21,572 nucleotides of DNA from Chiloscyllium plagiosum (taxonomy: Eukaryota): the NCBI RefSeq assembly GCF_004010195.1, contig NC_057718.1:54944497-54966068 (forward strand), in the 5' to 3' direction. The translations under genes and the position numbers were made by a program. Shown piece after piece: positions 1,131 through 21,572 of the stretch; within the stretch, counting starts at the first letter, position 1; each line of letters begins with the position of its first letter. The notes beneath the pieces were generated by a model. The model was given only the letters and a program-made list of their open reading frames with translations. It searched no databases and was not told where the DNA came from.

Positions 1131-1292
1131 ATTCTATCATTTAGTTTCAGCCATTTACCTCAGCTACCAGGAAATTGGCTTTGAAATCAACCAGTAACTA
1201 TCCCTGATATGGCGATGTCTGTGTTGGACTAGAGTGTACAAAGTTAAAAATCACACAACACTAGGTTATAGTCCAACAGGTTTAATTGGAAG

Positions 1293-1327
1293 CACTAGCT
1301 TTCGGAGTGCCGCTCTTTCATCAGGTG
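1293..1327 (-). ncRNA. Minimal hammerhead ribozyme motif (family A)
   Basis: Minus strand reads cac-CTGATGA-a-agagc-ggc-actcc-GAAA-gcta-gtg. Stem I is cac/gtg, the palindrome is AGCT and the triplet is CUA. Stem II has two mismatches. Confidence 0.7.
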
Positions 1328-1341
1328 GTTGTGGACACAGC

Positions 1342-1376
1342 CAACTGATGAAGGAGCAGCGCTCCGAAAGCCAGTG
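1342..1376 (+). ncRNA. Minimal hammerhead ribozyme motif (family A), cleavage triplet mutated
   Basis: caa-CTGATGA-a-ggagc-agc-gctcc-GAAA-gcca-gtg. Stem II is perfect, but the U of the NUH triplet is changed to C. Confidence 0.65.
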
Positions 1377-1413
1377 CTTCCAATTAAACCTGTTAGACTA
1401 TAATCTGGTGTTG

Positions 1414-2280
1414 AGTAACTATACCATCAGTATGCTTCTCAGTCTTATGTAGAGTGATGGAACATGTCATTAACAGCATTATAAAGGCAGTAGTTACTCA
1501 GCAATTGCTCACTGATGCTTAACCTGGGCTCCATCAGTGCCATTTGGCTTTGACCTCATCACAGCCTTGGTCCAAACTCAGACAAAAGAAAATTCCAGAG
1601 GAGATGGGAGAATGACTGAAATGACCAAGAGTGGGGTCAAGGAGCTCTGGAAAGTTGAAATCAGTAGGAATAAGGGAAAATTTTCCACTGGCTGGATTCA
1701 GATCTTGCACAAAATAAATGCTTGTTGCTATTAGAGGTCCATCACGTCAGCCCCAGGCACTAATGCAGGAGTTGCTCAGGGTTGTTTTCTAACCTTATCA
1801 TGACCCTGCATCCCTTCATCCTAGGGAATGTTTGCTCATGATTGAACAAGGTTCAATGTCATTTGCATTTCCTTCAGATACTGAAGCAATCTGTATCCAA
1901 ATGTGGGAAGACCTGGAAAATATTCAGGCTTGGGCTGGTAAGTGGCAAGTAATATGCACATCACAAAGTGAAAATTAAACTATCTCCCCCTTTACATTCC
2001 ACAGTATTACCATTATTGAAATCCCCAATATCAACAACTTGGGAGTTAACATTGACAAGAAATTTAAATGCATTGGTCATAAAAAATACAGTGGTTACAA
2101 AAATAGGTCAGAGCCTTGGATTTCTGCAGCGAGTAACTCACCTGCTAACTCCACAAATTCTGTCATTCATCTACAAGGCACAAGTCAGGAATGTGACAGA
2201 ATGTACTCTGCTTCAAGTACACCTCCAACAACATGCCAAAACCTCAGTGGTATCCAGGACAAAGCAGTGTACATAATCTG
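1414..2280 (+). mobile_element. Decayed L2/CR1-group LINE, reverse transcriptase region (begins at ~1180, split by the PLE)
   Basis: DLITALVQT (1552), AGVAQG (1765; cf. GVPQG), GMFAHD (1825; cf. FADD), IQAWAGKWQV (1922), LLTPQILSFIYKAQVR (2142). Multiple stops and frameshifts. Confidence 0.85.
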
Positions 2281-2399
2281 TAAGATAGTATTCCATGTGC
2301 CTTCTTAATTACTTGCTGTAACTACATACTAACTTTCTATGACTCATCTACTGGAACAACTAGATCCCTTTGCTCCTTGAAATTCTGCTGTTACTCTCC

Positions 2400-2760
2400 A
2401 TCTAAGTAATGCTTTTTATTTGCCTTGCCAAAGTGAACAATTTCACATTATACTCTGCCAGATTTTTGTCCACTTGCTCAATCTATCTATATGCATCTGT
2501 AACCTTATTATATCCTCTTCACAATACTTTCCCACCTATCTTTGTGTAGTCTACAAATTTAACTACCATGCCTTCACCATGCCTTTGTGAAAAACTGACG
2601 CCCCAACGCAGACCTCTATACAGGATAATCCTCATCAAATGCTACCAGTCAGAAAAATACCTACTCATGTATACTCTGTTTTCTGCCAGCCAGTCAACCT
2701 TCCATCCATGCTAATATCTTGCCTAATACTGCACACCATTTACTTTTCACCACGTAAAAT
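2400..2760 (-). mobile_element. Decayed CR1 LINE RT fragment (downstream part)
   Basis: Minus strand reads MVVKFVDYTKIGG at ~2531-2569 (cf. KFADDTKIGG). Confidence 0.75.
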
Positions 2761-2770
2761 GTATCTTCGA

Positions 2771-3110
2771 AAGGTTACACAATCCTTTATCTGAAATCCT
2801 CATGGCCAGCTGTTTTTCAGAATTCGAAATTTTTCGGGTTTTGGAATAAATGACATTTTCACAGTGAAATTAAAAAAATCTTACTGAGCAGCAGATACAA
2901 GTGTGTCTACTAGGAGCACTGAGACACGATTGACACCTACCAGTGCTGGGCCACACTGCCACGTTACATCTGAGTGATGTGGGTCGAGTGACTGTGGAGT
3001 TGGGTTAACTGTTTGTACGCCAAATAACCTTGTTATGCAGAAAAAAACTTCACGAAAAGCACTTTGGATTTCGGAGCTTTTCAGATTTCAGATAAAGGAT
3101 TGTCTACCTG
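2771..3110. mobile_element. Tc1/mariner-group (Tigger/pogo-like) MITE, ~340 bp
   Basis: Perfect 20-bp inverted repeat acaatcctttatctgaaatc at 2779-2798 and 3084-3103. Right end is ACCTG followed by TA; the left end is eroded. Subterminal ttttc(a/g)gatttc-type repeats; it interrupts a CR1. Confidence 0.8.
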
Positions 3111-3112
3111 TA

Positions 3113-4050
3113 CTTACATTGGCTCCCCCTTATCCACATAACATATTACTCCTTCAGAAGGTTCCAAAAAATTGTTAAAACATGATTACAGTTTCACAAA
3201 TGTATTCTGGTGTTTATTGAATACTTTGAATTTTTAAAGGACCCAGCTATAGCCTCCTTCATGGTCAATTCAACACCTTTTATTTCAGACATCAAGAAAA
3301 CTGGCCTGTATTTACCTTATTTTCTGTCTGTCTCACTTCAATAATAGAGGCATTATATTTCCTACTTTCAGTCCTGAATTGAGGGAATTTTGGAAGTTTA
3401 ATACCAATACATTGCTACCTCATTGAAGTCCATCAGGACCTGGGGACTTGTCAGTCTGTAGTTCCATTAGTTTGCTCAGTACCACATTCCTAGTGATTAC
3501 AATTCCACCAAGTTTCTGTCTGTCTTCCACATCCTAGTTTATAGCTATTACTGGTATATGTTTTGTATCCTCTATAATGAAAACAAAAGCAAAGTATTTG
3601 TTAATTTCATGTGTCATTTCCATATCATCTATTGTGAACACTGCATTCCTATTGTTAGAGAACCAATGCTAATTTTATTTATCCCTTTTCTATTTTTAAA
3701 TACCTGTAGAAACTCTTGCTACCCATTTTTTACATTTCTGGCTAATTTGCTCTACTATTCTAATTTCCTGAATAACCTTTTAGTCATTCTCTGCCATTCT
3801 TTATATTTTGGCAAATCATTTGACTTGTCACTGACCTGAAATAATTTTTTTTTTCTTTTTTGATGCTTTCCTTAATTTCTTTATGTTATTGTAGGAATAT
3901 AAGAGTTTTGTGAAATATCTCTTAAATGTATCTCTGTTGATAGTGGTCCAGTGCACTTCAGATAACTCAGCTTTCATGTTTAATATACTAATCTTAGAAA
4001 CATTCTTCTCCCTTTCAATCTGAATGTAAAATTCAATCATATTTTAGTCG
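3113..4050 (-). mobile_element. Decayed CR1 LINE ORF2 fragment (upstream part)
   Basis: Minus strand reads DKSPGPD at ~3432-3452 and CFNNFLEPSEGVICYVDKGEPM at ~3118-3183 (cf. CLTNLLEFFEGVxxxVDKGEP). Confidence 0.75.
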
Positions 4051-4455
4051 AAGACCAGAACAGGTGAAAACGGGAAGGTCTTACCCTAAAGAAGATCAGT
4101 GAAACAAATGGATTTTTATCGAAATCTGGTGGCTTTAAATCCACATTACTGATATTAATTTTATAATTCAAGATTTATTTAATTAACAGCATTTAAATTG
4201 CTCAGTTGCCATTGTGAATTTTGAACTCATGTCACTGGATTATTAGGAGGAAATGAGGACTGGAGATGCTGGAGATCAGAGTCGAGACTGTGGTGCTGGA
4301 AAAGCAGAGCTGGTCAGGCAGCATCCAAGGAGCAGGAGAGTTGACTTTTCAGACAGAAGCCACATTCCTGATGAAGGGCCTATGCCTGAAATGTCAACTC
4401 TCCTGTTCATTAGATTATCAGTCCACTTTTCTGGATTACTAGATCTATAACACAA
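4050..4455 (-). mobile_element. tRNA-derived SINE (same family as 7400-7830), interrupted by a PLE end
   Basis: B-box-like gagttcaaaat on the minus strand (4218-4228). The body aligns by eye with the copy at 7400-7830. Confidence 0.6.
4247..4406. mobile_element. Penelope-like fold-back end, family B, hammerhead motif on + strand
   Basis: Tail is on the left. Inverted segments caggagagttgac / gtcaactctcctg. CTGATGA(4368)-a-gggc-ctat-gcct-GAAA-tgtc. Degenerate TSD tcactggattattag (4232-4246) / tcattagattatcag (4407-4421). Confidence 0.75.
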
Positions 4456-5244
4456 TTTCTATGTTCCATCCACTGTCTTTAATTATAATCAAGCACAGCT
4501 ATGTGGCTAAATGGAAACTTTTTTGATTATAAATGCTTAACTGTATTCAATTTAGAATCCAACCCAAGCAAATCCTTTGCTCAAAATAATAAAGATATCA
4601 TCATTCTCCTCGAAACCATTGCCTGTATGGAATAAGGTAAAATGCAGCTAATATTCCTGCATCCACTTCATTTTCTCAGGAATGTGCAGCCAAATAGTAG
4701 TTACATTTTAATGATCAAAGGAACTGACAAGGCAATCAGATCTCTGCTAATATTCAAAAAAGTTAAAATATTTTCAAGTCTGTTTATAATCACAGAACTA
4801 TTAAAATTAATTTAAGTGATTGCTAATGTCCCAGACTGCCACCTTGGGAATACAGAACACTGCTTGTCTAAAATCAGTTCAGGCTGATTCTGTACATTAA
4901 AGGTATTTTACTTCATTCAAGTAAATTTTGAAATAATCATGTAAATTTTGTAATATAACAGTGTACTAATTCAAAAAGCACTTGGCTGCAGTGTTGAAGA
5001 ATCATTCACTATGAGCACAGATAAACAGTGAAAAGTACAGGGTATTGAAGTGGTTTGTATTGTAATGATGGAAGTGAGAAGCTTTGTGTGGTTTTCCTTC
5101 CAGCAATCAACTGCTGGTACTAGTCTAAGCAACCGATAACACGTGGGGAGGATGTCCATACAAAGTCTTCAGCAAGGTCTAGGCTCAATCTAGATAAACA
5201 ATAAACAGGTTTGATATATATTACTTAGTAGCTGGTTACATCTG

Positions 5245-5340
5245 AGTGGGAACGATCAGCCATGATCATATTGAATGGTGAAACAGGCTTGAAGAGTTGA
5301 ATGACCTACTTATGCGTCTATTTTCAATGTTTTTATGTTT
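5245..5340 (+). mobile_element. CR1 LINE 3' terminal fragment
   Basis: gatcagccatgatcatattgaatgg...gaatgacctact followed by a tatgttt-type tail. Confidence 0.7.
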
Positions 5341-5614
5341 GTGTGTACGATTTTGTAATGAATCACACATCCTGACTTATCCTTTGAGTATTTCAATTGA
5401 GAAATAATCAGTCTGCTATTTTGAAGACCAATTCTGCTATTTTCCCACTTTATCTGTGCCACAGATGTCCTGTAAATGATATGGTGTTGAATTAGCTGCG
5501 TGCTGATAACAAGCTGCCACTCAAGAATTGCAAAATCTGGATATGCCATTCCTTAACTGCTGACTGCAAAATCCAGACCAGTTACAAACAAGTATGATTT
5601 ATTTAAATTGTTTA

Positions 5615-6532
5615 ACAGCCACTACCATCATTGAATCCCTTGCTATCAACTGAGTGGGAGTTATCAAACGTAACTGGACCAGCTATATAAATATTGCGGC
5701 TGTAAATGCAGTTCAAAGATTGGGAATTCTGTGGTGAGTAATTCACCTCTTGATTTCCCAAATTCTCTCTACCATGTAAAGGACAGAAATGAGAAGTAGC
5801 TGAAAATGTGTTGCTGGAAAAGCGCAGCAGGTCAGGCAGCATCCAGGGAACAGGAGAATCAACATTTCGGGCATAAGCCCTTCTTCAGCCCTTCTTTCGG
5901 CTTATGCCCGAAACGTCGATTCTCCTGTTCCCTGGATGCTGCCTGACCTGCTGCGCTTTTCCAGCAACACATTTTCAGCTCTGATCTCCAGCATCTGCAG
6001 ATCTCACTTTCTCCTCAAAGAAATGAGAAGTACAATGGAATACTCCCCACTTGCCTGGATAAATACCATTCCAACGGCACTCAAGAGGCTCAATACCATC
6101 TCGACTAAAGCAGTCTGCTTAATGCCATACACCACCTAAAACATTCAACCCCTCCAGCACCATTGTCCACAGTACTAACCATGCATACCATTTACAAAAT
6201 GCCATGCAGCAATTCACTCAGGCTCTTCTCAAAGTACCTTTGAACTCTGCAGGAACTATCATCAAAAGGAACATGTACATAGATATTTAGGAACACCACC
6301 ACCTGGTTCTTTATTCCAATAACACACCATCCTGGAAATATATTGGCACTTCTTCATTGCTGCTCGGTCACAATCTTGGAAATCCCACCCTATAGCATTG
6401 TGGGTGTACCTACATCATAAGAACGATAACGGTTGAAGAAGCTGGCTTACAGCCAAGTTCTCAAGGCTAATTCAGATTATGGATTAAATGTTGGCCTTGT
6501 CAGCGATCCTGACATCCCATCAATCATAAAAT
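5615..6532 (+). mobile_element. L2/CR1-group LINE 3' part, interrupted by a PLE at 5799-6018
   Basis: MEYSPLAW at 6035. Collinear with 2000-2280. The 3' end (gttgaagaag...ctcaagg...aaatgttggcc...catccca) matches the tail at 15005-15210. Confidence 0.8.
5799..6018. mobile_element. Young Penelope-like fold-back insertion, family B
   Basis: 82-bp arms 5798-5879 and 5899-5980 with 2 mismatches, both at CpGs; tail 5981-6018. Perfect 14-bp TSD agaaatgagaagta at 5785-5798 and 6019-6032. Minus strand reads CTGAAGA-a-gggc-ttat-gccc-GAAA-tgtt. Confidence 0.9.
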
Positions 6533-6889
6533 AGAACATTCTGAACATTAAACAATATAACAGAAGGAGGAATCAGATGTTTACTTGTAATAAAATGTAT
6601 TGTGTGGAATTTTCATTCTGAGGCTCAGTATGGAGGCAGATCAAAAAACAGGAGGGATTTCCACTTGGGGGCAAGATGGATTTCTCATACAATTAGGTTC
6701 ATACAAGCTTATTAACATATTTGTACTTAGGCAAAATGCCTGGCAAGCAGGTAGGAATTTCTGAAGTCCACAGGGATCTTTCAGCCATTATATTGGCACT
6801 GAGATAGCACTTCACGGTCTGCAATCCAGGATCATCAATGGACCTCAGCTCCCCACTGCCATGCATCCTTGTGATTTTAGACACACACA

Positions 6890-7105
6890 AAAGAAGAATG
6901 CTGCACACTTCAGGTGTTCTCCCGCAGGGCATCTACGAAACAAGGAAAGTGGTGTTTCCCAGGGCTAGCAACACAAGGTCATCCTGAATCACCAAGGTGA
7001 CTTGAATGGAGGTTGCTGCAGCAGTTTTCACCTATGGCAAAAGAAAAGCTGCTGTCATCATACAAAGATATCTCCTACACTGTTGTTCACACATCTGAAG
7101 GTAAC
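6890..7105 (+). pseudogene. Decayed Harbinger Myb/SANT-like DNA-binding ORF fragment
   Basis: VLPQGIYETRKVVFPRASNTRSS*ITKVT*MEVAAAV in one frame from 6916; TGA sits where the conserved Trp of AWxEVAxxV is expected. Ends near AAG|gtaact at 7100. Confidence 0.55.
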
Positions 7106-7399
7106 TACAGTGCCTCTGTACACGTGACTTTCTCTGTCGTCTGTTCTGCAATGCTTAAGAGACTGGCTCCCCTCCTCATGCACAACTTCCCCATTCACAG
7201 CTGAAGCCTCCTACACCTCAAGTTTCCAATTCTACTGTCATAGCACTTCCTTTTTTCTCTTTATCTTCTTAGTCTCAACAATGCTAAAACTACTGCTGGT
7301 TTCAATAATTCTAGCCTCTGGAATGGAGGTACTGATCTGTAACAAAATGGTAGGATGCTTTCCATTTAAGGTCTTGACACAGTCACTTCACGTTTGGGC

Positions 7400-7830
7400 C
7401 CTTATCATTCTGGGGTATGGGCATCACTGGCTAGATCAGTATTTATTGTCCATTCATAATTATCCAGAGGGCAATTTAGTGTCAACCACATTGTTATGGC
7501 TCTGTGATCAGAAAAGCCAGACCGGGTAAGCATGGCAGATTTCCTTCCCTATAAAACGTTCATGAATCAGATGGGTTTTCACAACAGTCAGCAATGATAA
7601 CATGGTCATCACTGGATTTTTGGATTGATCATTGCATCAGGTTTTTTTAGTTGAATCCAAATGTTACCATTAATGGCAACTAGGGATGGGTAATAAATGC
7701 TGGCCAACCAGTGATACTCACATCCCACAAATGAATAAAAATAATCTGCCATGGTGGGATTCAAACCCATGTACCCAAAATGTTAACCTGAGGTTTGGGA
7801 TTACTGGTTGAGTGACATTAGTATTGTGAT
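7400..7830 (-). mobile_element. tRNA-derived SINE with L2-type 3' tail
   Basis: B-box ggtttgaatcc on the minus strand (7757-7767). The tail at 7405-7460 is antisense to the LINE tails at ~6470-6530 and ~15140-15200. Confidence 0.7.
7675..7744 (+). mobile_element. 70-bp LINE/SINE 3' tail fragment nested in the SINE
   Basis: ggcaactagggatgggtaataaatgctggcc...catcccacaaatgaataaaa, similar to 15140-15210. Confidence 0.75.
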
Positions 7831-8499
7831 GGGGAGCCATGCTGCTCCTACTGCCACTGGTTCATGGAGAGGTACACCCCATTAACTCTCCATAAACCTT
7901 GAGTGTTTTTTTCTCTTTCCTAATGCTTCCATGTGCACAATATTTGTTTGCTTTATCATTGCTTTCCATGCATGTAGTAATTTGCACAATATGATTCTTG
8001 TTGTCCTTCATTACCATCAATGATGTAACCCTTGCACATTGCTTCCATAACATTTCCTTCCCCATGCCATTAACTTTCATAAGAATGGGCCTGTGAATGG
8101 TCTTGATCAGCTGATTGTACCTTAATTCCACACTGCTTCTCCCCATCACATTCCCCAGAGCTGCTGATGAATCTTGGTCACTCTTCTTGTGAAAGGCTTC
8201 TTGTGAATGACTGGAACTAGTTGTGAGATTGCTGTTTGTAGCTTTTAACCCTTATTCATCTTTAATATGCACTGATTGATTTGCTTCAATGCAAAGACCT
8301 TAATGGGGTACTCAGAAAACAGTTTTCTTCACTTCAGTTTTGACAGATGGTTTTGAGTGTGTGAATGCTATGCATACAAATTCAACACTTTTTTAGATAA
8401 TTGACTGCAATTATAGAAAGTCACAATCCGAAGCAATTTCTTACCTAAAGGTCACGATTATTTAAAAGGGATTTGGTCAAATGGCTCCAACAAGTTGTA

Positions 8500-9290
8500 T
8501 TGAAAAATAACAGATATTTATACATTTATTAATATGGATAAAAATAACAGGTAAAAGATTAATTGGTTAACAAGAAGTATAGAAGAGGTGTAAATGGGTA
8601 TTTTTTGGGTTGTCAAGCTGGGTCTAATGGAGTGCCGCAGGGATCAGGACCTTAGGATTCACAATCTATATCAATAACTTGGATAAAGAGACTAAATATA
8701 TGGTTGGTAGATTTAGGTTAGAGTGGTGCTGGAAAAGCACAGCAGGTCAGGCAGCATCCAAGGAGTAGGAAAATCAATGTTTCTGGCAAAAGCCCTTCAT
8801 CAGGACTGAAGGCCTTCAGTCTTGATGAAGGGCTTTTGCCTGAAACGTTGATTTTCCTACTCCTTGGATGCTGCCTGACCTGCTGTGCTTTTCCAGCACC
8901 ACTCTAATCTCGACTCTGATTTCCAGCATCTGCAGTCCTCATTTTTGCCTGGTTGGCAGATTTACCAATTACACCAAAATAGGTAGAAAAGTAAGTTGTC
9001 AGTAGTATCAAAGATTCTGCAAAGGGATTTGGCAGGTTAAGTGAGTAAATAAAAATTTGACAGATGGAATATTATGTGGGGAAATATGAACTTGTTCATG
9101 TTTGCAGAAAGAGTAGCAAAGCAGTTTACTATTTAAATGCAAACAAATTGGTGAACTCCGTTGCACAGAGAGATCAGGTGTCCTGATATCTGCATCACAA
9201 AGATATTACTATGCAGACACAGCAAGTGATTAGGGAGGTAATTAGAATGTTGAAATTTAATGAAAGGGTAATGAATTATAAAAGTAATAG
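8500..9290 (+). mobile_element. Decayed CR1 LINE RT region, split by a PLE
   Basis: GVPQGS (8629), TIYINNLDKETKYMVGRF, then FTNYTKIGRKVSC after the insertion (cf. FADDTKIG), and *QMEYYVGKYE (cf. WQMEYNVGKCE). Confidence 0.85.
8716..8949. mobile_element. Penelope-like loop-less palindromic insertion, family B, two hammerhead motifs
   Basis: 95-bp arms 8718-8812 and 8813-8907 with 3 mismatches and no spacer; tail 8908-8949. 15-bp TSD tggttgg(t/c)agattta at 8701-8715 and 8950-8964. Confidence 0.9.
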
Positions 9291-9437
9291 CTCACAGATT
9301 CATGGAGCATCAGGTAAACTGAGGGCCAGAGATTAGACCAATTACTACTAGAAGAAAAATATTGATATGACAGCTTATACTTATTTCAAAAGGATATCAA
9401 AAGCAGTTAAAACCCCAATAACATGGATTTATATGAT

Positions 9438-9650
9438 AGAAACAACTTGCCTTTTATATTGTATCCTTGATATCTTTATCTTAGCCTAAAGCGTTTTGCA
9501 GCCAATGTGACCTTATCACTTTATAATGTCGGAAACATAGCAGTCAATTTGCACATACCAAAGCCTCACAAATAACAAAAAGATAATGGCCTGAGAGTTA
9601 GTCTGTTATTAGTGACATTGGTTTGTGGATAAATGTTCACCAAAACACTA
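9438..9650 (-). mobile_element. Deu-domain-type SINE (AmnSINE1/SacSINE1-like), 3' half
   Basis: Minus strand gtgcaaattgactgctatgtttccgacatt...cattggctgcaaaacgcttt...tataaaaggcaag resembles the 3' region of this SINE group and the copy at 16998-17125. Confidence 0.6.
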
Positions 9651-9725
9651 ATGTAATTTAAATATAGCAACTTAAAGTGTTTAATTTAAAGTAAAAATGT
9701 ATTTTAAATACAACTGATCGACAGA

Positions 9726-9875
9726 AAGGGCTTATGCCCGAAATATCGACTCTCCTGCTCCTCAGATGCTGCTCCTCAGATGCTGCTCCTCAGATGCTGC
9801 CTGACCTGCTTTGCTTTTTCTAGTGCCACACGTTTGGACTCTGACTCTCCAGCATCTGCAGTCCTCACTTTCTCC
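9726..9875 (+). mobile_element. Penelope-like 3' end, family B, single arm with partial hammerhead
   Basis: agggc-ttat-gccc-GAAA-tatc (CTGATGA box lost), running through the tail ccagcatctgcagtcctcactttctcc. Confidence 0.8.
9755..9800 (+). repeat. Tandem repeat, 14-bp unit x3
   Basis: ctgctcctcagatg three times exactly (9755-9796), followed by ctgc. Confidence 0.95.
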
Positions 9876-9969
9876 AAAAAACTTTAAAATGGGTTTACTA
9901 GTAGCTTGACAAACATTTGCTCTAACTTTCATAAAAACTGATGTGTAGAGATTGTTTCTTTTCTGTTAG

Positions 9970-10190
9970 AATCACTCTCTTCAGCCTTCCACGCCACCTA
10001 CTCCACTAAACTAGGTCTAATCAAGACCACAAATAATATTCTCAATGAGGACGAGGGTGCATTCTTCCTCCTGTCAACTGTTCTCGGTAACTTCTGATAC
10101 AATCAACTGCATAACCCTTCTCCAAAGGCTGTTTTCCATTGCCCCACAGGGCAGGACCTGACATGGCATGTTTTCCATCTTACCCAATAT
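9970..10190 (+). mobile_element. Old L2 LINE RT fragment
   Basis: FHATYSTKLGLIKTTNNILNEDEGAFFLL from 9987 (cf. FRxxHSTETALxKVTNDILxxDxG). Confidence 0.65.
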
Positions 10191-11575: not shown

Positions 11576-11869
11576 TTCCTTCTACTTGCCTGAAGGAAAC
11601 ATGAGCTCAAAGGCCATGAGGGCACTTAAGAGAGAAACTAAAGAAACGTGGGTAAAGTCAAGGGGAACACTGTAGGATGTTTGGGCAAGTGGAGGGGAGG
11701 AAAACAGCAGGAGCAACTTAAAGAATGGTCTCAATCTGAGTGACGAAGAAATCCATGAGCCCCTTATACTTCCTTGTAGAGGTGAGGGGGGTTGGGAGGC
11801 AGAATCTTTACAACACCCATTGTCCATGTAGGTGAAATATTAATTCCATATTTCTTCTGAGAGACAAAA

Positions 11870-12350: not shown

Positions 12351-12629
12351 TCCATGATTCTGAATTTCACGAAAAGCAGCAAGGAAATGTGACAAGTGAT
12401 TGATAACTAAGACATCTGGTATTACATGGCGCTAGTCTTCACACTGAGAGGTACAGTCAACAGTGTCCCCTGTCACTGCCTAGAAAATCTTCAGAAAATA
12501 ACTCCTACTAATGGAATTGTTTGAACTATTATGATGGCCTCTCAAAATTAGAATGAGAAATTAGTATTGGATTATTTTTTCACTGCAACATAGATTAAAA
12601 TTGTTCCAAATGATTAAATGATTTGATTT

Positions 12630-12955
12630 GGGCAACACAGTGGCTCAGTGATTAACATTGTTGCCTCATAGATTTGGGGACCTGGGTTCAATTCCAGCCT
12701 GAGATGGCTGTCTGTGTGAAGTTACATGTTCTCCCTGTGTCTGCATGGATTTCTGCTGGATGCTCTGGTTTCCTCCTGCAGTCCAAAGATGTGGTTGTGG
12801 AAAATTGACTTTAATGTCCAGGAATGTGCATGATAGGTGAATTAGCCATGGTAAATGCAGGACATTGGGATTGGGTCTTGGTGGGATGCACTTTGGAGGG
12901 TTAGTGTAATCTTGATGGGCTGAATGACCTCTTTCCACATTGAGGGATTCTATAA
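12630..12955 (+). mobile_element. HE1-like tRNA-derived V-SINE, near full length
   Basis: A box tggctcagtga (12641), B box ggttcaattcc (12685), V-domain-like ttctccctgtgtctgcatggattt, and CR1-like tail gatgggctgaatgacctc. Confidence 0.9.
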
Positions 12956-13375
12956 TTATAAGTTCTTGTTTGAATTAAAAAAAAATCTAATTTGTAAATG
13001 TAGAGGCTAGAAACATTGTGCTAACACATTGCACCAATTAGGCCTCCATTTCTTTTCATTGTCCAATGTTGCTTTGGTAGCTATTCCTTTAAACCCATCA
13101 TAAACATATCGAGTTTAACTTCCAAGTATCACTCCATAATGAATAATGTTCCTGATGCAGTATTACCAAATTAATTGGTTATAGCCTGAGATATTGTTAA
13201 CTTACACAGAGTTGGGTAATTGCTTCAGTTTCAATTTGACGAAGATTTCATTTTGGAATTGGTAATTCAAATCCATAAAGTCCCAACAATAAAAAATATA
13301 TACTGGTCTATTTAAATTAAGGTTATGTTGGAAAGTTCCATGAGAACTCAGATATATTTTAACAGCTAACCACAT

Positions 13376-13653
13376 CATAAAGTTCCTACAGTTTGGAAAG
13401 AGGCCATTTGGCCCATCAAATCTGCACCAACCCTCCAAACATCATCCCATCCAAACCCAAGCTCTAACCTATAGCCGCACATTTATCATGGCCAATCCAG
13501 CTAACCTGCACTTTGGAAGGAATCTGGAGTGCCCAGTGGAAACCCACACAGACACACAGCAAACATGCAAACTCCACACAGACAGTCACTCAAGGCTAGA
13601 ATTGAACCTGAGTCCTTAGCACTATGAAGCACCACTGAGCTACCATGCCACCC
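13376..13653 (-). mobile_element. HE1-like V-SINE
   Basis: Minus-strand A box tagctcagtgg (13632-13642) and B box ggttcaattc (13599-13608); same body and tail as 12630-12955. Confidence 0.9.
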
Positions 13654-13867
13654 AATATATAATCATATTGTTTGCTATGTGCCTCTTAATTTTCTCATTC
13701 ACTTGAAATTTTAAACATAAAATGAGATCTGACATAATGCTTCATCACCATCACAGACCAGACTGAGATCATTTGATGATATAAATCTAATTCAGTCACT
13801 GCTAGGTGTGTGAGATTGTGCTGATGGTCATAAATGATCTCTTGGAAAGTGAAATATTTTCCTGTTG

Positions 13868-13971
13868 GCAAAAACAGAAATTGCTGGAAAAGCTCAGCAG
13901 GTCTGGCAGCATCTGTGGAGCAATTTCTGTTTTTGTTTCTAATTTACAGCATCCATAATTCTTTTGGTTTT
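13868..13971. mobile_element. 104-bp Penelope-like fold-back end, family C, no hammerhead
   Basis: 17-bp perfect inverted repeat caaaaacagaaattgct at 13869-13885 and 13919-13935, then a tail. Perfect 13-bp TSD tattttcctgttg at 13855-13867 and 13972-13984. Confidence 0.85.
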
Positions 13972-15004
13972 TATTTTCCTGTTGATTTAGGCACTGTGAC
14001 TGATCAAAAGATTATGGATGGTCTTATGGGTGCAATCTATGGCTTACTGAATCTTGGGGAATACTGCCACTTGGTAAAATTACATTGTTTTGTCAACCTG
14101 CTGCCAGTAGTCCATGGGAAAGTATGTGAACTGGCATACAACAGCATTTGTGACTCCTTTGATGTGTCTGTTTGTCCAGTGAGTTTCCAGTGAATATCCA
14201 CCAGTATTCCATATCTAACATAAAATTTATGGGTGACAAGACATTTGCAGATACTTGTGGAGCAGTGCATATAATCAGGATAGGATGGATATTGGATTTA
14301 GCAAGTGTTATGAATGTGTAATTTCGTGACTCATATGTTTGGGGAAAATAATGTTTGGAAATTAGATTTTAAAGATATGATAAATGGGAAAATCTGGATT
14401 TGGGAAACTAGTGAGTACTTCTAAGATAGCTACAACTCAGTGGTGGTCCATTATTTACTTAAAGGGATTAGAGTTAGAGGTGTATTAAAAATTAATCCTC
14501 TCTTGACTTTGTAATGGAGCCAGTGAGACAGATAAAATTGCCCCCATTAAGGTTTACATTTGCATTAGCCATATCATTTCCACAGATCATAGAAATTTTT
14601 GAAAGCAATTGATAAAATAAGGAATCTTTTAAAGAATTCATCTATTTTTCAGATCAAAGGGAAGGTTGGGAGGGTTGGAGATAATTGGTTTAAATTTTCT
14701 ATCTAGAATATCTGAGCTGTACCATCTTGCTATGAAATAAACTATATAGGGAGATATCCTTTTGTTTTGGGGTTTCCCATGTAAGGTGATTAAGGAACAA
14801 TGGAGTTCCTCTTGGGTGAAATAAAAGTAGAACATGAATTGTCTTGCTGAGACATTTGGACTTAGATTAGGTGTTTATCTAATATAGTGTTAAATTAGTG
14901 GTTCTTACTGTGCTTGACTCTTGTACGATAAAGGCTTTTATTTAAAGAATGAAATCAGGCAGCATAGTTCTTTCAGTTATTAACTGGCAGTCTGAATGCC
15001 TTTA

Positions 15005-15210
15005 TCCTGACTTGGAAATATATCACCATTCCTTCACTGGGTCAAAATACTGGAATTCCTTCCCTAAGGGCATTGTGGCTCAAGCTACAGCATGTGGACA
15101 GCAGTGGTTCAAGAAGGCTGCTTACCACCACATTCTCAAGGGCAACTAGGGACAAGTAATAAATGCTGGCCAGCCATCTATGTCCATGTTCCATGATTAA
15201 ATAAAAAAAA
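15005..15210 (+). mobile_element. L2/CR1-group LINE 3' end
   Basis: Aligns with 6330-6530 and ends in aaataaaaaaaa. Confidence 0.8.
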
Positions 15211-15394
15211 TTCTGCAATGAACTGTGAACTGCAAAGTCTCTAATCCTTGTCAAGTAGAATTCAATCTGTATATGGTGATGCCTCCTTTAGTATCAGAAC
15301 AATTTAGCAATCTTTTTCTTTTTCTTGTCACATTAAATAATATTCATAAACTATTTACGAAAAGGAAAACAAAAGAGGCCCCGAAAGTGTATCC

Positions 15395-15615
15395 CACAAT
15401 TCAATAAGGTCATGACTGATTTTATTGTTACTTTAAATCCACTTTCCTGCCTCTCCCTATCCCTTCCACTCCATAACCCATGGCTCCCTTGTCAATGAAA
15501 AATCTATTGCACTCTGATTGGATATTTTTATTAGATCAGCTTCCACTGTGAACAGAATTCCAAAGGCCAGCGCCCTCTGAGAGAGGAAATTCCTACTTAT
15601 CTCCATCTTAAGTGT
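15395..15615 (-). mobile_element. CR1 3' fragment
   Basis: Aligns with 10970-11180 (tccactttcctgcct, aattcca, tgagaggaaatt). Confidence 0.7.
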
Positions 15616-16875
15616 ATGGGAGAGGCTGCGACTAAAACAGGAGAACCTCAGAAAAATGGACACAATTAATGGTGCAGGAATTCTCAGCAGCAAGAATGAA
15701 ACAAGAGCATTTTTAAAACCTTGCAATGAATTATTTTATGACAACTAAACAATTAAACTAATATACTTTTTACCTTTTCATTCCTGTACAGTGAACATTG
15801 ACACTAGTTATATATCAACATCAGTGAAACTGGAGCAATAATGATAGAAAATGAGGCATTTAAGTCTTTATGTCATTTGCACCTTATTTAACAGCTGTTC
15901 ATTTTAAGATTTCAGACAGAAGTGAGTTTGGAAAATTTGACAGGCAAGATGTTGGCACTAATGCAGTATTATAGTTGCCTAATGCATTTCTCAGCTTGCT
16001 ACAATACCACTGAAACTGTTGCCCAGCACAGACCAGGTTGTTTATTTTAAAATCCAAAATGCTGCTAATGGTAATGATTTTTTTATTTGTCAACTATCAT
16101 AGATATGTAGCTGAGGTGGCATAAAAAGGAATTAATCAGGCTTTGCTTCTGATGAACAAATATTATCTGAAGTGCATTAAATTCTTACAGAAAGTACCTT
16201 TTTTAACTGGTCTCTGGCAATAACATAACAACCTTTCTCTTCAATGAAGAAACTTAAGGACAATACTTTATGATATCCCACTTATATTGCCCACCATTAT
16301 TTTCCCATTTAAATCAATGGATGGAAATCTAAAAGGAGTCTGCCTGAGATTTTGCAATTAGCTTCCTTTTGCATGCCAGACATGTATGTGAAATTAAGTC
16401 ATAGAACATTTTACCTATTAATGTGGATGAAATGTCCCAACTGACTGTACTCATTTCGGAATCAATGAGAACTTCTGCTTCTATGCTGTAAAAAAAACTT
16501 TTGAAAAATTACACATTGTTGAATGATGGGTAATTGGGTTTTTAACAGTATATCAAATTCATAGCTACTGCTAATCCGCCTCACTGGCTCAGAAAGTAAT
16601 TTCATATTTGCTTAATGTCAGATCTCTCCATTATGATAGATTCCACAAATGTAAATAAGTGTTTGTTTTTGATGTTTTAGCTTCTCCTTTAATTCCATGT
16701 ATATATCCCAATCATTTATTTCACCATCTGTAAAATATAAAATTAATAGTGAAGGGATTCAAAGGAGTTTCCTTCCTGGTTTATTGTCTGTATTGTGGTT
16801 GAATGCTTTCCCGACTCGCTGACGTCACTGCTGGAATGCTAGCGAGTCAGAATCCAGCCACAAATAGAGGTCTGA

Positions 16876-16997
16876 CCCGATGAAGGGTCACTGGTTTTGG
16901 AACATTAATTCTGCTTTATCTCCATTGATGCTGTCAGACCTGCTGAGTTTCTCCAGCAATTTCTGTTTTTGTTTCAAATTTTCTACATCCACTATTT
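16876..16997 (+). mobile_element. Penelope-like 3' end, family C, decayed hammerhead
   Basis: ccgatgaagggtcactggttttggaacatt, then gatgctgtcagacctgctgagtttctccagcaatttctgtttttg as in 13868-13971. Confidence 0.7.
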
Positions 16998-17125
16998 CTT
17001 GCTGTGTGTAAATTAACTGCTGCATTTCTACCTTGCAACAATAATGACATTTTAAAAGCACTTCATTGGCTGTTAATCACTTGAGGATGATGGCAGGTAT
17101 CATATAAATGTAATTCTTTCTTTCA
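16998..17125 (+). mobile_element. Deu-domain-type SINE 3' end
   Basis: cttgctgtgtgtaaattaactgc...cacttcattggctgt...tataaatgtaattctttctttc. Confidence 0.6.
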
Positions 17126-17550
17126 GATCCTCTAACGGAGTTACACCTTGGTCAAGAAACCATTAGTGGTCCCAAATGGAGACCTGTTGTTCAAATGAGT
17201 GCCTCTTGCCAAAAGCTAGTGATTTCTGATGGCTTTAGACAGCAGTGCATTTTAGTTTGGTAACTGAACAGCCTGATTTTTATCTGTGTCAAAATGTGTG
17301 GCGCTGGAAAAGCACAGCTGGTCAAGCAGCACCTGAGGAGCAACAGAGTCGATGTTTCGAACATAAGCTCTTCATCAGGAATGTGGGGTGTGGGGGATTG
17401 GGGCAAGGGAGCTGATAGATAAATGGGAGGGGAGTGGGGCAGGGGAAGACAGCTAGGAATGCGATAGGTGGATGAAGGTGGGGGGGGTGATGGTGATAGG
17501 TCAGAATGGAGGGTGGAGCGGATAGGTAGGAAAGAAGATGGACAGGTAGT

Positions 17551-18012
17551 TCAAGAGGGCGGTGCTGAGTTGGAGGGTTGGATCTGGGATAAAGTGGGAG
17601 AGGGAGATAAGGAAACTGGTGAAATCGACATTGATTCCTTGTGGTTGGAGGGTCCCAACGTGGAAGATGAGGTGTTCTTCCTCCAGGCGTTGGGTGACTA
17701 AAATTTGACGGTGGAAGCGGCCCAGGACTTGCATGTCCTTGGCGGAGTAGGAGAGGATGTTGAAGTGATCAGCCACAGGGCATTTGGGTGTTTTAGTGCA
17801 TGTGTCCCCAAGGTGTTCTATGAAAAATTTGCACTTTGGCGTCCTGTCTCCCCAATGTAGAGGAGGCATATCAAGAGGAATGGACACAATAATGAGGTGT
17901 TTGGACGTGCAGGAAAATTTCTGCCAGAAGGATCCTTTGGGGCCTTGGATGGAGATGAGAAGGGAGATGTGAGTGCAGGTTTTACACCACTTGCGGTGGC
18001 AAGGGAAGGTGC
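17551..18012 (-). pseudogene. PLE Cys/His linker plus GIY-YIG endonuclease, frameshifted
   Basis: TFPCHRKWCKTCTHI, LLYIGETGRQ, PVADHFN, RLEEEHLIFHVGTLQPQGINVDF. Confidence 0.88.
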
Positions 18013-18015
18013 TCT

Positions 18016-18330
18016 CGATGTGGTCTCCTCTACATTGAGGAGACTGGATGCCAACTTGTGGAACGTTTCGGAGAACATCTCTGGGACAAATGCACTAAAC
18101 ATCCCCACCACCCTGTGGCCAATCGCTTCAACTCCCCCTCCCACTCCACCAAGTCCTGGGCCTCCTCCACTGCCAAATCCTAGTCACCCGATGCCTGGAG
18201 GAAGAACTCCTCATCTTCCACCTTGGGACCCTCCAACCACACAGACTCAATGTTGATTTCACCAGTTTCCTTATCTCCCCTCCTCCCACTTTATCCCAGA
18301 TCCAACCCTTCAACTCGGCACCGCCATCTT
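18016..18330 (+). pseudogene. PLE GIY-YIG endonuclease C-terminal half, frameshifted
   Basis: RCGLLYIEETGCQLVERFGEHL...PVANRFNSPSHSTK, then VLGLLHCQ...LEEELLIFHLGTLQPHRLNVDFTSF. Confidence 0.88.
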
Positions 18331-18999
18331 GGACCGTCCTATCTGTCCATCTCCCTTCTCACCTATCCACTCCATCCTCCACTCTGACCTATCACTATTA
18401 CTGCCAAACTTCATCTACCTATCGCATTCCTAGCTACCTCGCCCCCAACCCCAACTCCGTCCCATTTATCTCAGCTCCCTTGGCCCCGTCCCACATTCCT
18501 GATGAAGAGCTAATGCTTGAAACGTCATCTCTCCTGCTCCTCAGATGCTGTCTGACAGGCTACGCTTTTCTAGCACCACAGTTTTTGGCTCTGGTCGCCA
18601 AATTTGCAGTCCTCATTTTCTCCTACCTGATTCTTATCTGTGTCCAAGAATGATGCATCTGACTACATCTGGCATCTCCTCTACTGGAACAATGATCACA
18701 CACTTGGGTCACTTTTAATGAGAGGAGTGCAATGAGCTAGGATCTGAAACATAAAGGATAAAACTTCAGTTGGAATACACGTGGGGTGAGTTTGAAATGG
18801 AAGCAGTCACTGAGGAATGAGATGTGGCTGTGGAAGTGAGCTTTAGCAAGTATCTTGTCAAACACTAGGAGCAACTACAAAAGTAATGATGATGAACAGG
18901 AAAAAAGATTAGAATGGAAATCCTATCGGAGAGAGGTATAAAACCTCTTCAAAGTGGGTATACCTGAAAGCGATGATACTGTGCGTTAAAACTTTTAAA

Positions 19000-19343
19000 A
19001 AAAGAACTGTGGATGCTGGGAATATAGAACAAAAACAGAAATTAGTGGAGACACTTAATAGACTTGGCAGTATCTGTGGGAAAAAGCAAAGTTAACATTT
19101 TAGGTCCAGTGACCTTTATTCACATCCATTGGGAGCTAGGAAAAGGCGGTATATATGCAGAAGACAGGAGGGTGAGGTGGGGTAAAGGAGTACATGATAA
19201 GTACAGATGGAGCCCAGAGAGAGAGAGAGAAAACAGCAGTTATACAGACAAAGGGATGGACAATAGTGAGCCATAGAGAAAGAAAAGCTAATAATAAAGA
19301 CCATAAGTGATAATGGGTTGCCAACAATGAAAACAGCCCATGT
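19000..19343 (-). mobile_element. Penelope-like 3' end and UTR, family C, older copy
   Basis: gaactgtggatgctgg...aaaaacagaaatt matches family C. Stem II remnant aggtc-actg-gacct at ~19103-19116. Confidence 0.7.
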
Positions 19344-19359
19344 CTGCTTTTGATTTTGA

Positions 19360-20046
19360 TACCATATTTTCTATATATATGTGTCCAATGTCCTTTGGTG
19401 CCACATGATTTGCAGATGTGAAGAACCACAGGACAATATCTGAGGAGGTATGAAAATCCTCATCTAGGATACATCTTGCTCGTTTGATATGCTTTGCTGA
19501 CTGCAGCAATTATGTTGCCTGCAGCCAAAGTTATAACTGATGTTGAACAACTGCAATTATTTCATACTGGTCTCCATCATCCAGCAAGATGTCAATGATA
19601 TGTCCTTTTTTCTTGTCCAGAAGATCTTTATAGAAGGAGGTATCAGAGTAGAGGTGATTTCTAACATGATTGGCCTCTGTGTGAGTTCTTCTTCAGAGAA
19701 ACACATTCATTCTCTTTGCTGTGGAATTGGGTGGCAAAGTCATTAATAGACTCTTGGGGTTTCTCTCTGTATAAGATGTGTTGGAATTTGTTGACTTGGA
19801 AGTTAATTTGTTCCTTGAACTTGATCCTTCAATATTCTTAGATCTTCTCTGGCTGTATTTTAGATCTTCAGGAAGACTAGATATACTTATTCTGCAAAGC
19901 CTTTCCTACATGATAGTAAGTAATATTTTAATGGATTTCTTCTTGGGATCACTTATGGTTTGCTCTATAAAGTAAAGCTAAAATAGCCTTAATTCGATGA
20001 AGGTGTCATTTGCAGCCCAATCCATAACCAAATGTTTGCCTTCCAT
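19360..20046 (-). pseudogene. Decayed Gypsy LTR-retrotransposon gag with two zinc knuckles
   Basis: MEGKHLVMDWAANDTFIELRLF from 20046, then YREKPQESINDFATQ (major-homology-like), SEEELTQR, KDLLDK, and YPR*GFSYLLRYCP followed by CKSCGTKGHWTHIY (CX2CX4HX4C with the last C changed to Y) at 19373-19414. Confidence 0.72.
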
Positions 20047-20604
20047 TTCTTACTGATGATCTATACCTTTTTGTTTTATTGATCAGTTTGTTTATTCCTT
20101 TCTTTTACTTGGTTCAGTCCTTTAATATTGCCGCCTTTTGCTTTACTTTAGTTCTCCTTGTTGTCACCTCTTTAGGAATGTTTGCCAAACATGTTTCTGT
20201 GCCTTTAAGAGATAAAGAGATAAAGGAATACCAAATAATGGCTGATGACATCGCAGCAGCTTTGGCGCTGCATTGAAGGAAACAAAATAGCAAAACTAAC
20301 TGGCCACTGCACATCGACTTTCTAGATTAGAAAATCACTCCTTAGTGCTTAAAATATCATGTATTTCAAACAAAAGGGCTGTATAGTAAAACTGACGTTA
20401 TGCTTTAACACTGTTCACTTTGAATCTGTAGAAAGCCTTTTGGCTGTTAATTTTACTTTTGTCTAATTTTCATTCATGATTCTTTTATAAGCAACTAATG
20501 ATACTTATCTTTGCTTGACAACCATGACATGATGATAAGGTGTGATAGGCAATGACCTGGAACTATCACTATGATATTTATGTTAGCTCCTATAATATAA
20601 ACAC

Positions 20605-21278
20605 GAGGCATTGGTCACATAGTTCTGAAGACTTCAACATGGAAAAGGACAAGGATGGACTTGAAATTGAAGTTCTCAACTGGGCAAAGATAACTTTAAT
20701 AGATCAGACATGATTTGGCCAGAGTGGACTGGGAACAGATACTTCCAGGTGTCTTAGAACAGTGGGATACATTCAAGAAGGAAAAATGGAGAGTAAAGGG
20801 CCAACATGTTCCAATAAAAACAAAAGGTGAGGCCATCAAATCCTGTAAACCCTAGATATCGAGGGATGTAGAGCATTTGATTAAGAGAAAAAGGGAGGTC
20901 AGATAGCAAGGGCTCAGAACAGCAGAAGTCCAAGAGAAGGATATAATGTGCAAGAAGGAACTTAAAAAGGAGATTAGGAGAGCTGGTAAAATAAAGGAAA
21001 TCCTAAATTGTTTTACAGGTACATTAAGGGTAAAAGGATAATAACGGAAAGAGTAGGGCCCATTAAGGAGTACAACAGTACATGTAGAGCCATTGGATTT
21101 AGGTAAGGTTCAAATGAATAGTTTATGTCGGTTTTTACTAGTGAGAGAGAGACAATATGGGTATGGAAATCAGGGAGAAAATATGTGATAAAATTAAAGA
21201 AGTTAACATAGACAGAGAGGAGGTTCTGGTCGGCTTTAAAATGGATACATATTCCAGGGCCAGATGGAATATTCTGGA
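20605..21278 (+). mobile_element. CR1 LINE ORF2 fragment between endonuclease and RT
   Basis: FNMEKDKDGLEIEVLNW, DLARVDWEQ, NPKLFYRYIKGKRIITERVGP, NE*FMSVFT and PGPDG (21254). Cut off by a PLE. Confidence 0.85.
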
Positions 21279-21572
21279 TCAGTGGTGCTGGAAGAGCACA
21301 GCAATTCAGGCAGCATCCGAGGACAGGCAAAATCGACATTTCGGGCAAAAGCCCTTCATCAGGAATACAAGCAGAGAGCCTGAAGCGTGGAGAGATAAGC
21401 TAGTGGAGGGTGGGGGTGGGGAGAGAGTGGCATAGAGTACAATAGGTCAGTGGGGAAGGAGATGAAGGTGATAGGTCAGGGAGGAGAGGGTGGAGTGGAT
21501 AGGTGGAAAAGGAGCTGGGCAGGTCGGACAAGTCCGGACAGGTCAGGGGATCGAGTTTCTGGAGGTTAGAAG
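21279..21572 (-). mobile_element. Penelope-like 3' UTR and end, family B variant, runs off the window
   Basis: Same layout as 17291-17560 and tail-less. Hammerhead at 21331-21366. Confidence 0.85.
21331..21366 (-). ncRNA. Minimal hammerhead ribozyme motif, best-preserved family B copy
   Basis: attc-CTGATGA-a-gggc-tttt-gccc-GAAA-tGTC-gatt. Perfect stem II and GUC triplet; the ACGT palindrome is changed to ATGT by CpG decay. Confidence 0.75.

Follow-up and report, generated by a model that had tools for sequence, protein, structure and literature searches.

Introduction

Minimal type I hammerhead ribozymes (min-HHRs) have been described in the pLTRs of metazoan Penelope-like elements (PLEs) by Cervera and de la Pena (2014, PMC4209133). 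In the sections of that paper used here, the class reads CUGANGA-H-stem II-GAAA-palindrome-UH, with an extra base at 9/10.1, a G10.1-C11.1 pair and a palindromic 15.2-16.2; a genome holds several families with compensatory changes, most copies are solo with some in opposite-strand pairs, and a dimer model is put forward. The shark motifs described below resemble the class in these respects, and the dimer model would extend to them. The extra base, palindrome, covariation and dimer model singled out by the original prediction all belong to this published description and are not new; as first stated, the finding adds a group not sampled before to a known class, and what stands out is its scale. 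The role of the hammerhead in PLEs has been termed unknown in the passages used of two later papers (PMC8557442, PMC7761336).

Insertions of EN+ PLEs, as far as the excerpts go (PMC3846280, PMC8557442), show head-to-head arms, a one-sided tail, 8-20-nt target duplications and an Inr-like pLTR sequence; the shark insertions share this architecture but are mostly reduced to the last 95-135 nt. In the Anolis Poseidon element PAc (Frangieh et al. 2024, PMC11167929), according to the portions used, the hammerhead sits at the pLTR-ORF junction, there are two internal priming sites, the enzyme works mainly on uncut RNA and cleavage requires protein. The shark elements are alike in the position of the hammerhead, in 3' ends about 35 nt apart (the tail), in what appears to be an uncut RNA template, and in having no read ends at the cut. 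The PAc start codon, however, lies at stem II, whereas in shark family B, at the single locus L259, the ORF apparently starts some 140 nt beyond the cut, and those portions discuss neither a ribozyme-sited transcription start nor an extra G in genomic copies. Non-LTR retrozymes (PMC7229834; bioRxiv 10.64898/2026.07.22.740005; both in excerpt) likewise carry type I hammerheads, are PLE-related and reach 120,000 in axolotl, with one chondrichthyan sampled in the preprint; they form head-to-tail arrays of 150-400-nt units, whereas the shark copies are solo or in mirror pairs.

Hammerhead-bearing ends in the window

The window is the whole analysed stretch of 21,572 nt from Chiloscyllium plagiosum (NC_057718.1), and positions are counted from its first base. 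It contains the following features.

1193-1204 / 1414-1425: 12-nt target duplication of the family A pair at 1204..1416
1204..1332, minus strand: family A end, left palindrome arm; box 1324, stem I CAC/GTG and AGCT intact, pair 10.1-11.1 broken
1336..1416, plus strand: family A end, right arm; begins G-ACA (extra-G junction class, a G that belongs to the left arm as well); box 1345, U16.1-to-C change
4245..4361, minus strand: core-less family B end; the left arm, tail present
4362..4415, plus strand: family B short arm; box 4368, ATGT, first pair of stem I broken
5782-5798 / 6016-6032: target duplication of the family B pair at 5798..6015
5798..5888, minus strand: family B arm; box 5888, 5' strand of stem I missing
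5899..6015, plus strand: tailed family B arm that has lost the first box; ACGT intact
8700-8715 / 8949-8964: target duplication of the family B pair at 8715..8948
8715..8812, minus strand: family B arm; box 8803, pair 10.1-11.1 broken, ACAT
8813..8948, plus strand: tailed family B arm; C3-to-U change at 8822, every stem intact
9725..9875, plus strand: solo end of family B that has lost the first box; an internal 13-nt unit is present three times
13869..13963, no strand assigned: family C tail palindrome without hammerhead; target duplication 13854-13867 / 13971-13984
16877..16992, plus strand: family C end; both boxes damaged
17271-17290 / 18625-18644: 20-nt target duplication of the insertion at 17290..18625
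17290..18012, minus strand: family B inverted copy; box 17378 (GAGC subfamily, ACAT), with the ORF's 3' part, broken
17962..18625, plus strand: broken GIY-YIG C-terminus, 3' UTR and family B end; box 18499, GAGC subfamily, ACGT intact, stem I broken
19002..19124, minus strand: family C end with damage in both boxes; its stem II reads AGGTC/GACCT
21281..21572, minus strand: TTTT-loop family B end, its upstream 3' UTR reaching the window edge; box 21362, the best-preserved copy

All eight boxes that had been listed are present at their starts, with CTGANGA and GAAA, all on PLE ends and all with the extra A after CTGANGA (8/8). The five partial or decayed copies exist as well, the box placed at 16879 lying at 16877 and the copy placed near 19110 being that at 19124 on the minus strand. 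A strict descriptor (both boxes plus a stem II of at least 3 bp) recovered six of the eight together with one unrelated match at 985, and 200 dinucleotide shuffles of the window gave a mean of 0.22 matches (maximum 3); 1324- and 8803- escape the descriptor because their pair 10.1-11.1 is broken.

Retention of the palindrome, however, had been overstated: AGCT or ACGT is intact in only two of the eight (AGCT in 1324-, ACGT in 18499+), the others reading AGCC, ATGT (three) and ACAT (two). With stem I included, every pairing plus a Watson-Crick palindrome is retained in none of the eight, and 21362- is the sole copy that passes once G-U is permitted in helix III. The letters of the five stem II forms had been given correctly, but the copy that supplies aggtc/gacct has lost both boxes to mutation, and a single subfamily stem, GAGC/GCTC, underlies both gagc/gttc and gagc/gctt, each through one C-to-T change. 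Of the three families proposed, B and C have a common 3' tail and form one lineage. The window stands at about twice the genome mean and is a sample of the genome-wide background. Its paired copies are head-to-head palindromes on opposite strands, with no tandem dimers in the window, and folding predicts long hairpins for these mirror pairs. Target duplications were found at 6 of the 9 window insertions tested, the one at 4245-4415 being tentative. As read from their letters, the window copies are mostly mutated, decayed PLE ends, and their hammerheads are predicted to be inert.

Not mentioned in the original prediction were the core-less arm at 4245-4361, the core-less family C palindrome at 13869-13963, the covariation of stem I and the target duplications. 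Immediately beyond the window's end (after 21572) the assembly reads N.

Genome-wide pool and motif anatomy

A very large pool of motifs had been anticipated, and it was found: at least 99,000 are exact (B 86,254, A 12,463, C 207; reversed controls 0), and a sample of 380 ends in 1.196 Mb, with 45 of the 380 intact, extrapolates to about 134,000 intact motifs and 1.1 million ends. The exact count compares with about 4,000 in coelacanth and 9,000 in Xenopus in the sections used of PMC4209133, in which no cartilaginous fish figures, and the pool is 10-30 times the published vertebrate min-HHR counts. That these families may be little characterised agrees with the literature searched, in which no shark families were found; Lunse et al. 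2017 or supplements may list shark motifs. An Rfam scan at E up to 5 gave 22 matches, none of them to a hammerhead family and all sub-threshold matches to hairpins, and a tRNA scan found no tRNA.

Both core boxes are retained in 107 of the 380 sampled ends. The unpaired base between 9 and 10.1 is A in 96 of 98 copies of families A, B and C and T in all nine of family D, and pair II.1 is G-C in 74 and G-T in 24 of the 107. By majority the helix III palindrome is AGCT in A and ACGT in B and D (for C, in exact copies); it is retained in 61 of the 107 box-selected copies. Stem I reads CAC/GTG (A), TC/GA plus a fourth A-U pair (B), GTT/AAC (C) and NCA/TGN (D). In family B it comes to 2 bp, a mismatch and 1 bp, and with its 4-bp stem II the motif is shorter than most alignment rows in the part used of PMC4209133. 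The predicted cut falls after GUC in B, CUA in A and GUU in C.

The stem II covariation claimed from the window is real between families and within one family B subfamily, but the rest of what the window shows is mostly CpG decay. In the 107 copies, chosen for their boxes only, Watson-Crick pairs exceed the maxima of all-family shuffles (in brackets) in stem I as well as stem II: II.2 98 (82), II.3 96 (77), II.4 94 (73), I.1 82 (71), I.2 96 (75) and I.3 38 (27). Genome-wide, pair 10.2-11.2 of family B is G-C in 86,254 copies, A.C in 1,305, G.U in 1,055 and A-U in 358, these double changes numbering 358 against 16 expected. Between-family double changes preserve pairing in stems I and II, and individual copies decay neutrally, at CpG in core and palindrome; pairs 15.2-16.2 are kept in 61/107, under the within-family shuffle mean of 68.

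Relation to Penelope-like elements

The identification as PLE minimal type I hammerheads is supported by the core boxes, the UH site and the link to PLE ORFs. Window 17962-18270 is, by translation, an endonuclease C-terminus with a motif that we take to be GIY-YIG; Pfam returned no family on this piece or on L043. At the L143 locus, remnants of an RT and an endonuclease precede a family B end, and the window remnants at 17290..18012 and 17962..18625 match its ORF by tblastn (E 1e-34 and 2e-18). RVT_1 matches were obtained in three of five ORF pieces, one of them over the cut-off, and at L259 the family B tail continues into an ORF start. Judged by its sequence, family B is an EN+ Penelope-like element, with RT followed by a C-terminal GIY-YIG beside the pLTR. 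Families C and D likewise have an endonuclease C-terminus upstream of the motif. In family A, 124 anchors gave a longest common upstream stretch of about 870 nt with no family-specific ORF seen, and its architecture (inverted arms, tail, duplication) fits an EN+ PLE. A search for an intact full-length element found none, the long 'open frames' being assembly gaps.

Among the 380 sampled ends, 160 stand in back-to-back pairs within 80 nt. Same-strand pairs number 3 within 80 nt against 80 mirror pairs, and 24 within 1.5 kb; the head-to-tail tandem units by which non-LTR retrozymes are recognised are not the arrangement of these copies.

Stub 5' ends, the extra G and the cut site

The 3' ends of the copies are bimodal, with two end points about 35 nt apart. 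Their 5' ends accumulate in an initiator context ahead of the core, 4 nt away in B and 8 nt in A, and both putative starts match the initiator consensus BBCA+1BW (PMC5287114, as excerpted). Homology stops within the 12 nt upstream of C3 in 86 of 123 copies of family B and in 19 of 25 of family A, a count from gapless extension to 12 and 6 references that inflates short ends in old copies, and the ends spread across 0-11 nt rather than falling on a single base. In the N7=A subfamily, a non-native base precedes ATTC in 6,965 copies, whereas the same count taken two bases upstream is 1,740; junctions 1 nt downstream are equally common (7,951, mostly microhomology joins).

At this junction an extra G is present in 55/100 B and 73/100 A copies, as against 13/100 and 14/100 at neighbouring junctions and a G background of 26% among non-C bases (Fisher p about 1e-9), hand-counted on the first 100 matches listed, first on contig C1 and a non-random draw. 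It lies outside a 14-16-nt target duplication in L285, L286 and L289. It falls within the duplication in L272, L276, L277, L279 and L283 (9 nt or shorter-match calls) and in L333, and at each of the 22 inverted-arm junctions of family A a G-rich arm could have supplied it; L282 has an extra A in its place. The excess is weak in the host-flanked sets as scripted (B 8/19, p 0.10; A 8/18, p 0.07) and becomes 12/24 and 8/11 after adjustment, in which five B loci classed 'direct' were added and seven A copies (native-extended, with a C-to-T change) were dropped by eye. A native-G subfamily was ruled out by the diverse flanks, a splice junction by the lack of AG before the A, and confusion with post-cut GATTC by its inapplicability to family A. 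That many stubs begin just ahead of the motif, with an extra G, is the less familiar point here, together with the scarcity of ends at the cut site; the motifs themselves belong to the already-described min-HHR class.

Junctions at the cut site number 602 under a two-base filter (about 1,700 corrected) versus about 8,800 at the putative start in a smaller subfamily, stub ends being at least 5-fold rarer. They compare with 617 at +2 and 69 at -2, all shaped by microhomology. Family A RNAs run uncut through the cut site, are polyadenylated 29-32 nt past it and are about 9:1 sense. In the one informative run (X19, a poly(A) single-cell library, 2% read), no RNA start pile-up was seen at the proposed +1 and no read ends at the cut; being a poly(A) library, it is no test of cleavage. 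A T-run precedes the family B cut site in 23 matches, and of 14 inspected, 10 are CpG-decayed native copies and 4 are host-flanked copies starting exactly at the cut. None of the 14 has U6 joined at the cut, and none of the 48 U6 places scored, out of about 453,000 candidates and with flanks unseen, coincides with the 23 matches.

Discussion

We consider that these sequences are probably decayed PLE end pieces with a min-HHR motif, the short ones likely reverse-transcribed from the front end of a capped, uncut RNA. Transcription would start at an initiator A, which precedes C3 by 4 nt in B and by 8 nt in A, and the RNA would therefore begin with the ribozyme. The PLE enzyme would nick the target and prime internally, some 65-100 nt beyond the cut site, for which the anole element offers an in vitro precedent, then copy to the cap and add a C opposite it. 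Either a jump to the RNA 3' end would follow, giving a long copy, or a stop, leaving a 95-135-nt stub, often with a mirror arm. Selection on the ribozyme would operate only in active parent elements, where two copies may pair via the 4-nt palindrome and cut weakly, probably helped by the element's protein; insertion would not need cutting. The junction statistics bear on the PLE RNA start site and on whether its template is capped and uncut, and with that on how the class copies its ends.

LTR elements make minus-strand strong-stop DNA, a short cDNA that runs from an internal primer to the capped 5' end. By likeness, family A would have a terminal repeat stretching from its putative start to the poly(A) site about 67 nt away; the proposed primer differs in being nicked target DNA rather than a tRNA, and the jump to the 3' end is conjectural. 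The extra G itself recalls L1, whose untemplated G is taken as a copy of the cap in the part used of PMC6425141. Extending this, we put forward more tentatively, and at somewhat less than even prospects, that shark-type genomes preserve a fossil record of how PLEs replicate, with an RNA that starts at the hammerhead, strong-stop-like copying from an internal site to the cap (the extra G) and an obligatory jump to a terminal repeat with a second hammerhead, the hundreds of thousands of stubs being failed jumps. If true, this would explain the regeneration of pseudo-LTR ends and tails, and would place both ribozyme copies on one RNA, able to dimerise; the ribozyme would then act as a switch for decapping or end joining, not as a cutter that releases monomers.

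The strongest competitor, which we hold to be unlikely, sees ordinary 5'-truncated stubs whose ends cluster through fold-back or microhomology joins (self-priming at short palindromes), with the G borrowed from the target or mirror arm and no cap involved. The 160/380 back-to-back ends would suit it, many listed junctions are joins to the mirror arm, and an inverted pLTR, tail and palindromic junctions are usual for PLEs in the excerpts of PMC3846280 and PMC8557442. It leaves unexplained, however, why G should be 4-fold more frequent than at the positions on either side, at an initiator A in each of two unrelated families, as well as the three Gs outside long duplications.

That the motif serves a non-cutting role (promoter, protein-binding, priming fold) and never cleaves in sharks seems improbable. 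The interrupted stem I of family B would agree with such a role, and unconstrained folds of intact copies did not yield the dimer ribozyme fold; thermodynamic co-folding did not recover it either, a result given no weight in either direction. Published min-HHRs are poor cutters and Naiad PLEs flourish without a hammerhead (PMC8557442), in the sections used. Against this, four families retain all catalytic letters, stems I and II, loop II, N7 and N17 vary only where a hammerhead permits, and the anole motif cuts with protein, with C3-G8 rescue.

Lastly, that the stubs are autonomous active ribozyme elements (retrozyme- or SINE-like), cutting as dimers and spreading by RNA circles, is very improbable, for although about 134,000 copies look intact, the family is transcribed, 4 of the 14 T-run-selected loci are host-flanked and begin exactly at the cut, and cut junctions (602) exceed those 2 nt upstream (69), these junctions equal those 2 nt downstream (617), no read ends fall at the cut, CpG decay affects core and palindrome (61/107 against 68), close same-strand pairs are 3 to 80 mirror pairs, and the mirror pairs are predicted to form hairpins of -124 to -187 kcal/mol.

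Hammerhead ends in the window and in the genome

The eight hammerhead cores placed in the window by the original prediction are all present at their positions, as are its five partial copies, and a profile search yielded 16 pieces, equal to 15 ends after joining one split end. A strict descriptor recovered six of the eight boxes plus one unrelated match (mean in shuffled sequence, 0.22). An Rfam search of the window returned no matching hammerhead model. Target duplications of 12-20 nt were found at six of the nine window insertions tested.

The very large motif pool anticipated for this genome was borne out both by exact-motif scanning of the 3.556-Gb assembly, in which the window lies at G000:C9:54944497-54966068, and by sampling.

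Exact motifs genome-wide, by family of Penelope-like element (PLE) end (reversed control, 0 in each case)
Family B: 86,254
GAGC subfamily of family B, additional to these: 358
Family A: 12,463
Family C: 207

Profiles were run on 124 stretches of 10 kb spaced evenly over contigs C1-C39 (1.196 Mb excluding N, small contigs lying outside the sample). They found 380 ends, a density of 318 per Mb (bootstrap 277-362), and none in the reversed control; both boxes are kept in 107 and all pairings in 45. If the sample holds genome-wide, these figures extrapolate to about 1.13 million ends, of which 318,000 would keep both boxes and 134,000 (98,000-179,000) would be intact. Single stretches held from 0 to 10 ends. 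At about 700 per Mb the window has double the sampled mean density; its motifs are real and ordinary for this genome.

All the structural features named in the prediction are already described in PMC4209133, and the shark motifs, as judged from sequence, are PLE hammerheads of the known class with putative cleavage ability. Among the papers listed by a literature search, thin on subscription titles, none was about shark PLE hammerheads or about a cap-derived G in PLE copies, to judge by the listings. What stands out is how many copies there are and the signature at their junctions.

Covariation and decay

The proposed helix covariation is strong between families, where it extends to stem I, which had gone unmentioned, and amounts to a handful of evolutionary events rather than 107 independent ones; variation from copy to copy turned out to be CpG decay. 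Family B itself shows one clear double change, namely A-U at pair 10.2-11.2 of stem II (358 observed versus 16 expected from single changes), whose carriers form one subfamily including the cores at 17378- and 18499+. Other variation between subfamilies lies in N7, loop II and N17. As for the 4-nt palindrome said to replace helix III, it is kept in two of the eight boxes and changed in the other six; none combines a Watson-Crick palindrome with every pairing intact, and one does (21362-) when G-U is allowed. CpG decay disrupts the ACGT palindrome at a higher rate than is seen in shuffled controls, and together these patterns argue that selection acted on the parent elements and that inserted copies drift.

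An extra G at the 5' junction

Homology ends at most 12 nt before core residue C3 in 86 of 123 family B and 19 of 25 family A copies. In the largest family B subfamily a non-native base precedes ATTC in 6,965 copies and the native C in 11,300, a count from which the leading filter drops many native copies. Of the first 100 family B matches listed, 55 have G as the extra base, versus 13/100 at 2 nt upstream and 14/100 at 1 nt downstream (all hand counts). Family A, unrelated in sequence to family B, has 2,171 copies with the junction before ACAAYCAC, with G in 73 of the first 100 listed. Both putative start A's match the initiator consensus BBCA+1BW, as given in PMC5287114, and that of family B doubles as the final base of stem I.

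Among 90 fetched loci (the first 50 family B and first 40 family A places listed), the G lay outside a long target duplication in three and within the duplication in six, and an A replaced it once; family A mirror junctions among these loci carried G in 22 of 22. Taken before by-eye reclassification, the host-flanked junction sets are only suggestive of the extra G. The simplest reading is that a C is added opposite the cap and then often pairs with a G of the target or arm.

With filters corrected, the predicted cut has at least 5-fold fewer junctions than the putative start, and the family B junction counts show no peak at the predicted cut versus the +2 position. Four host-flanked family B copies (centres of L363, L366, L367 and L370) start exactly at the predicted cut, two of them showing what look by eye like short T-rich duplications; these could be copied from the 3' cut product or be chance truncations.

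Copying and RNA

We propose that PLE RNA would begin at the first base of the ribozyme, and that this start would be combined with internal priming and an uncut RNA template, both shown for the anole element in PMC11167929. Family A ends in the genome lack poly(A) and run 25-65 nt beyond the poly(A) site, which argues that they were copied either from a leader or from a transcript reading through into a tandem copy. For the stubs, or short end pieces, the extra G favours a leader template; a bolder strong-stop reading of them is possible, and we lean slightly against it.

The RNA data come from one poly(A) single-cell run, with reads from many copies at 88% likeness. Family B reads fall on both strands with no pile-ups; family A reads are about 9:1 sense and show no drop across the cut site. 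No RNA start pile-up was seen in this run, where a 67-nt RNA would be poorly retained. Family A reads terminate in poly(A) 29-32 nt beyond the cut (836 reads at two places). This was noted at L223:1561-1564, and family A has AATAAA/ATTAAA directly past the cut, a hexamer missing from the B, C and D profiles; dispersed family A copies may therefore provide host transcripts with poly(A) sites. At L211:8839, 168 reads of run X19 have a common, loose 5' end (agreement 0.67), and probably come from one well-expressed family B copy elsewhere.

Arrangement and parent elements

Head-to-head pairs within 80 nt involve 160 of the 380 sampled ends, among which close same-strand pairs number three. Folding of a transcript that crosses such a head-to-head pair predicts a long hairpin (87-97% paired) that would bury the motif. 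In some perfect palindromes one G-C pair separates the two arms, each of which stops at the putative +1 A (G000:C1:6599257-6599307, locus L284, and five more among the first 100 listed family B junctions). The 3' ends cluster at two positions separated by about 35 nt, the PLE tail.

In the insertion at 17290-18625, two pieces of a GIY-YIG endonuclease C-terminus, in inverted arrangement, adjoin family B ends. Family C has a tail in common with family B and an endonuclease end upstream. Family D, absent from the window and making up 26 of the 380 sampled ends (e.g., L027, L045, L073, L076 and L083), has a 6-bp stem II, T as its extra base and a clear GIY-YIG upstream; its A9-T-G10.1 reads ATG where stem II begins, a feature matching the anole element as described in PMC11167929. 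Family A shares the architecture of the others, and no ORF tied to its ends was found among 124 anchors. At L222:1540-2690 two family A ends in inverted orientation enclose a family B-type ORF piece, which would reflect either nesting of insertions or RNA of one family captured by another. The family B ORF carries a long Thr/Pro/Ala-rich low-complexity stretch upstream of RT (L259, L267, L254), where many copies have assembly gaps.

Other features were noted in the window, the LINE-like fragments by eye:
12647-12950 (+) and 13384-13660 (-): opposed tRNA-headed SINE copies (inverted repeats I15 and I21), resembling the shark HE1/V-SINE
1470-2280, 6010-6540, 7400-7750, 8560-9290, 15000-15210 and 20600-21270: LINE-like 3' fragments, presumably of CR1/L2 type
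8715-8948 (a palindrome) and 21281 (a copy): apparently inserted within LINE-like fragments
17126-17200 and 15905-15925: short AG/GT-bounded stretches that may be + strand host gene exons
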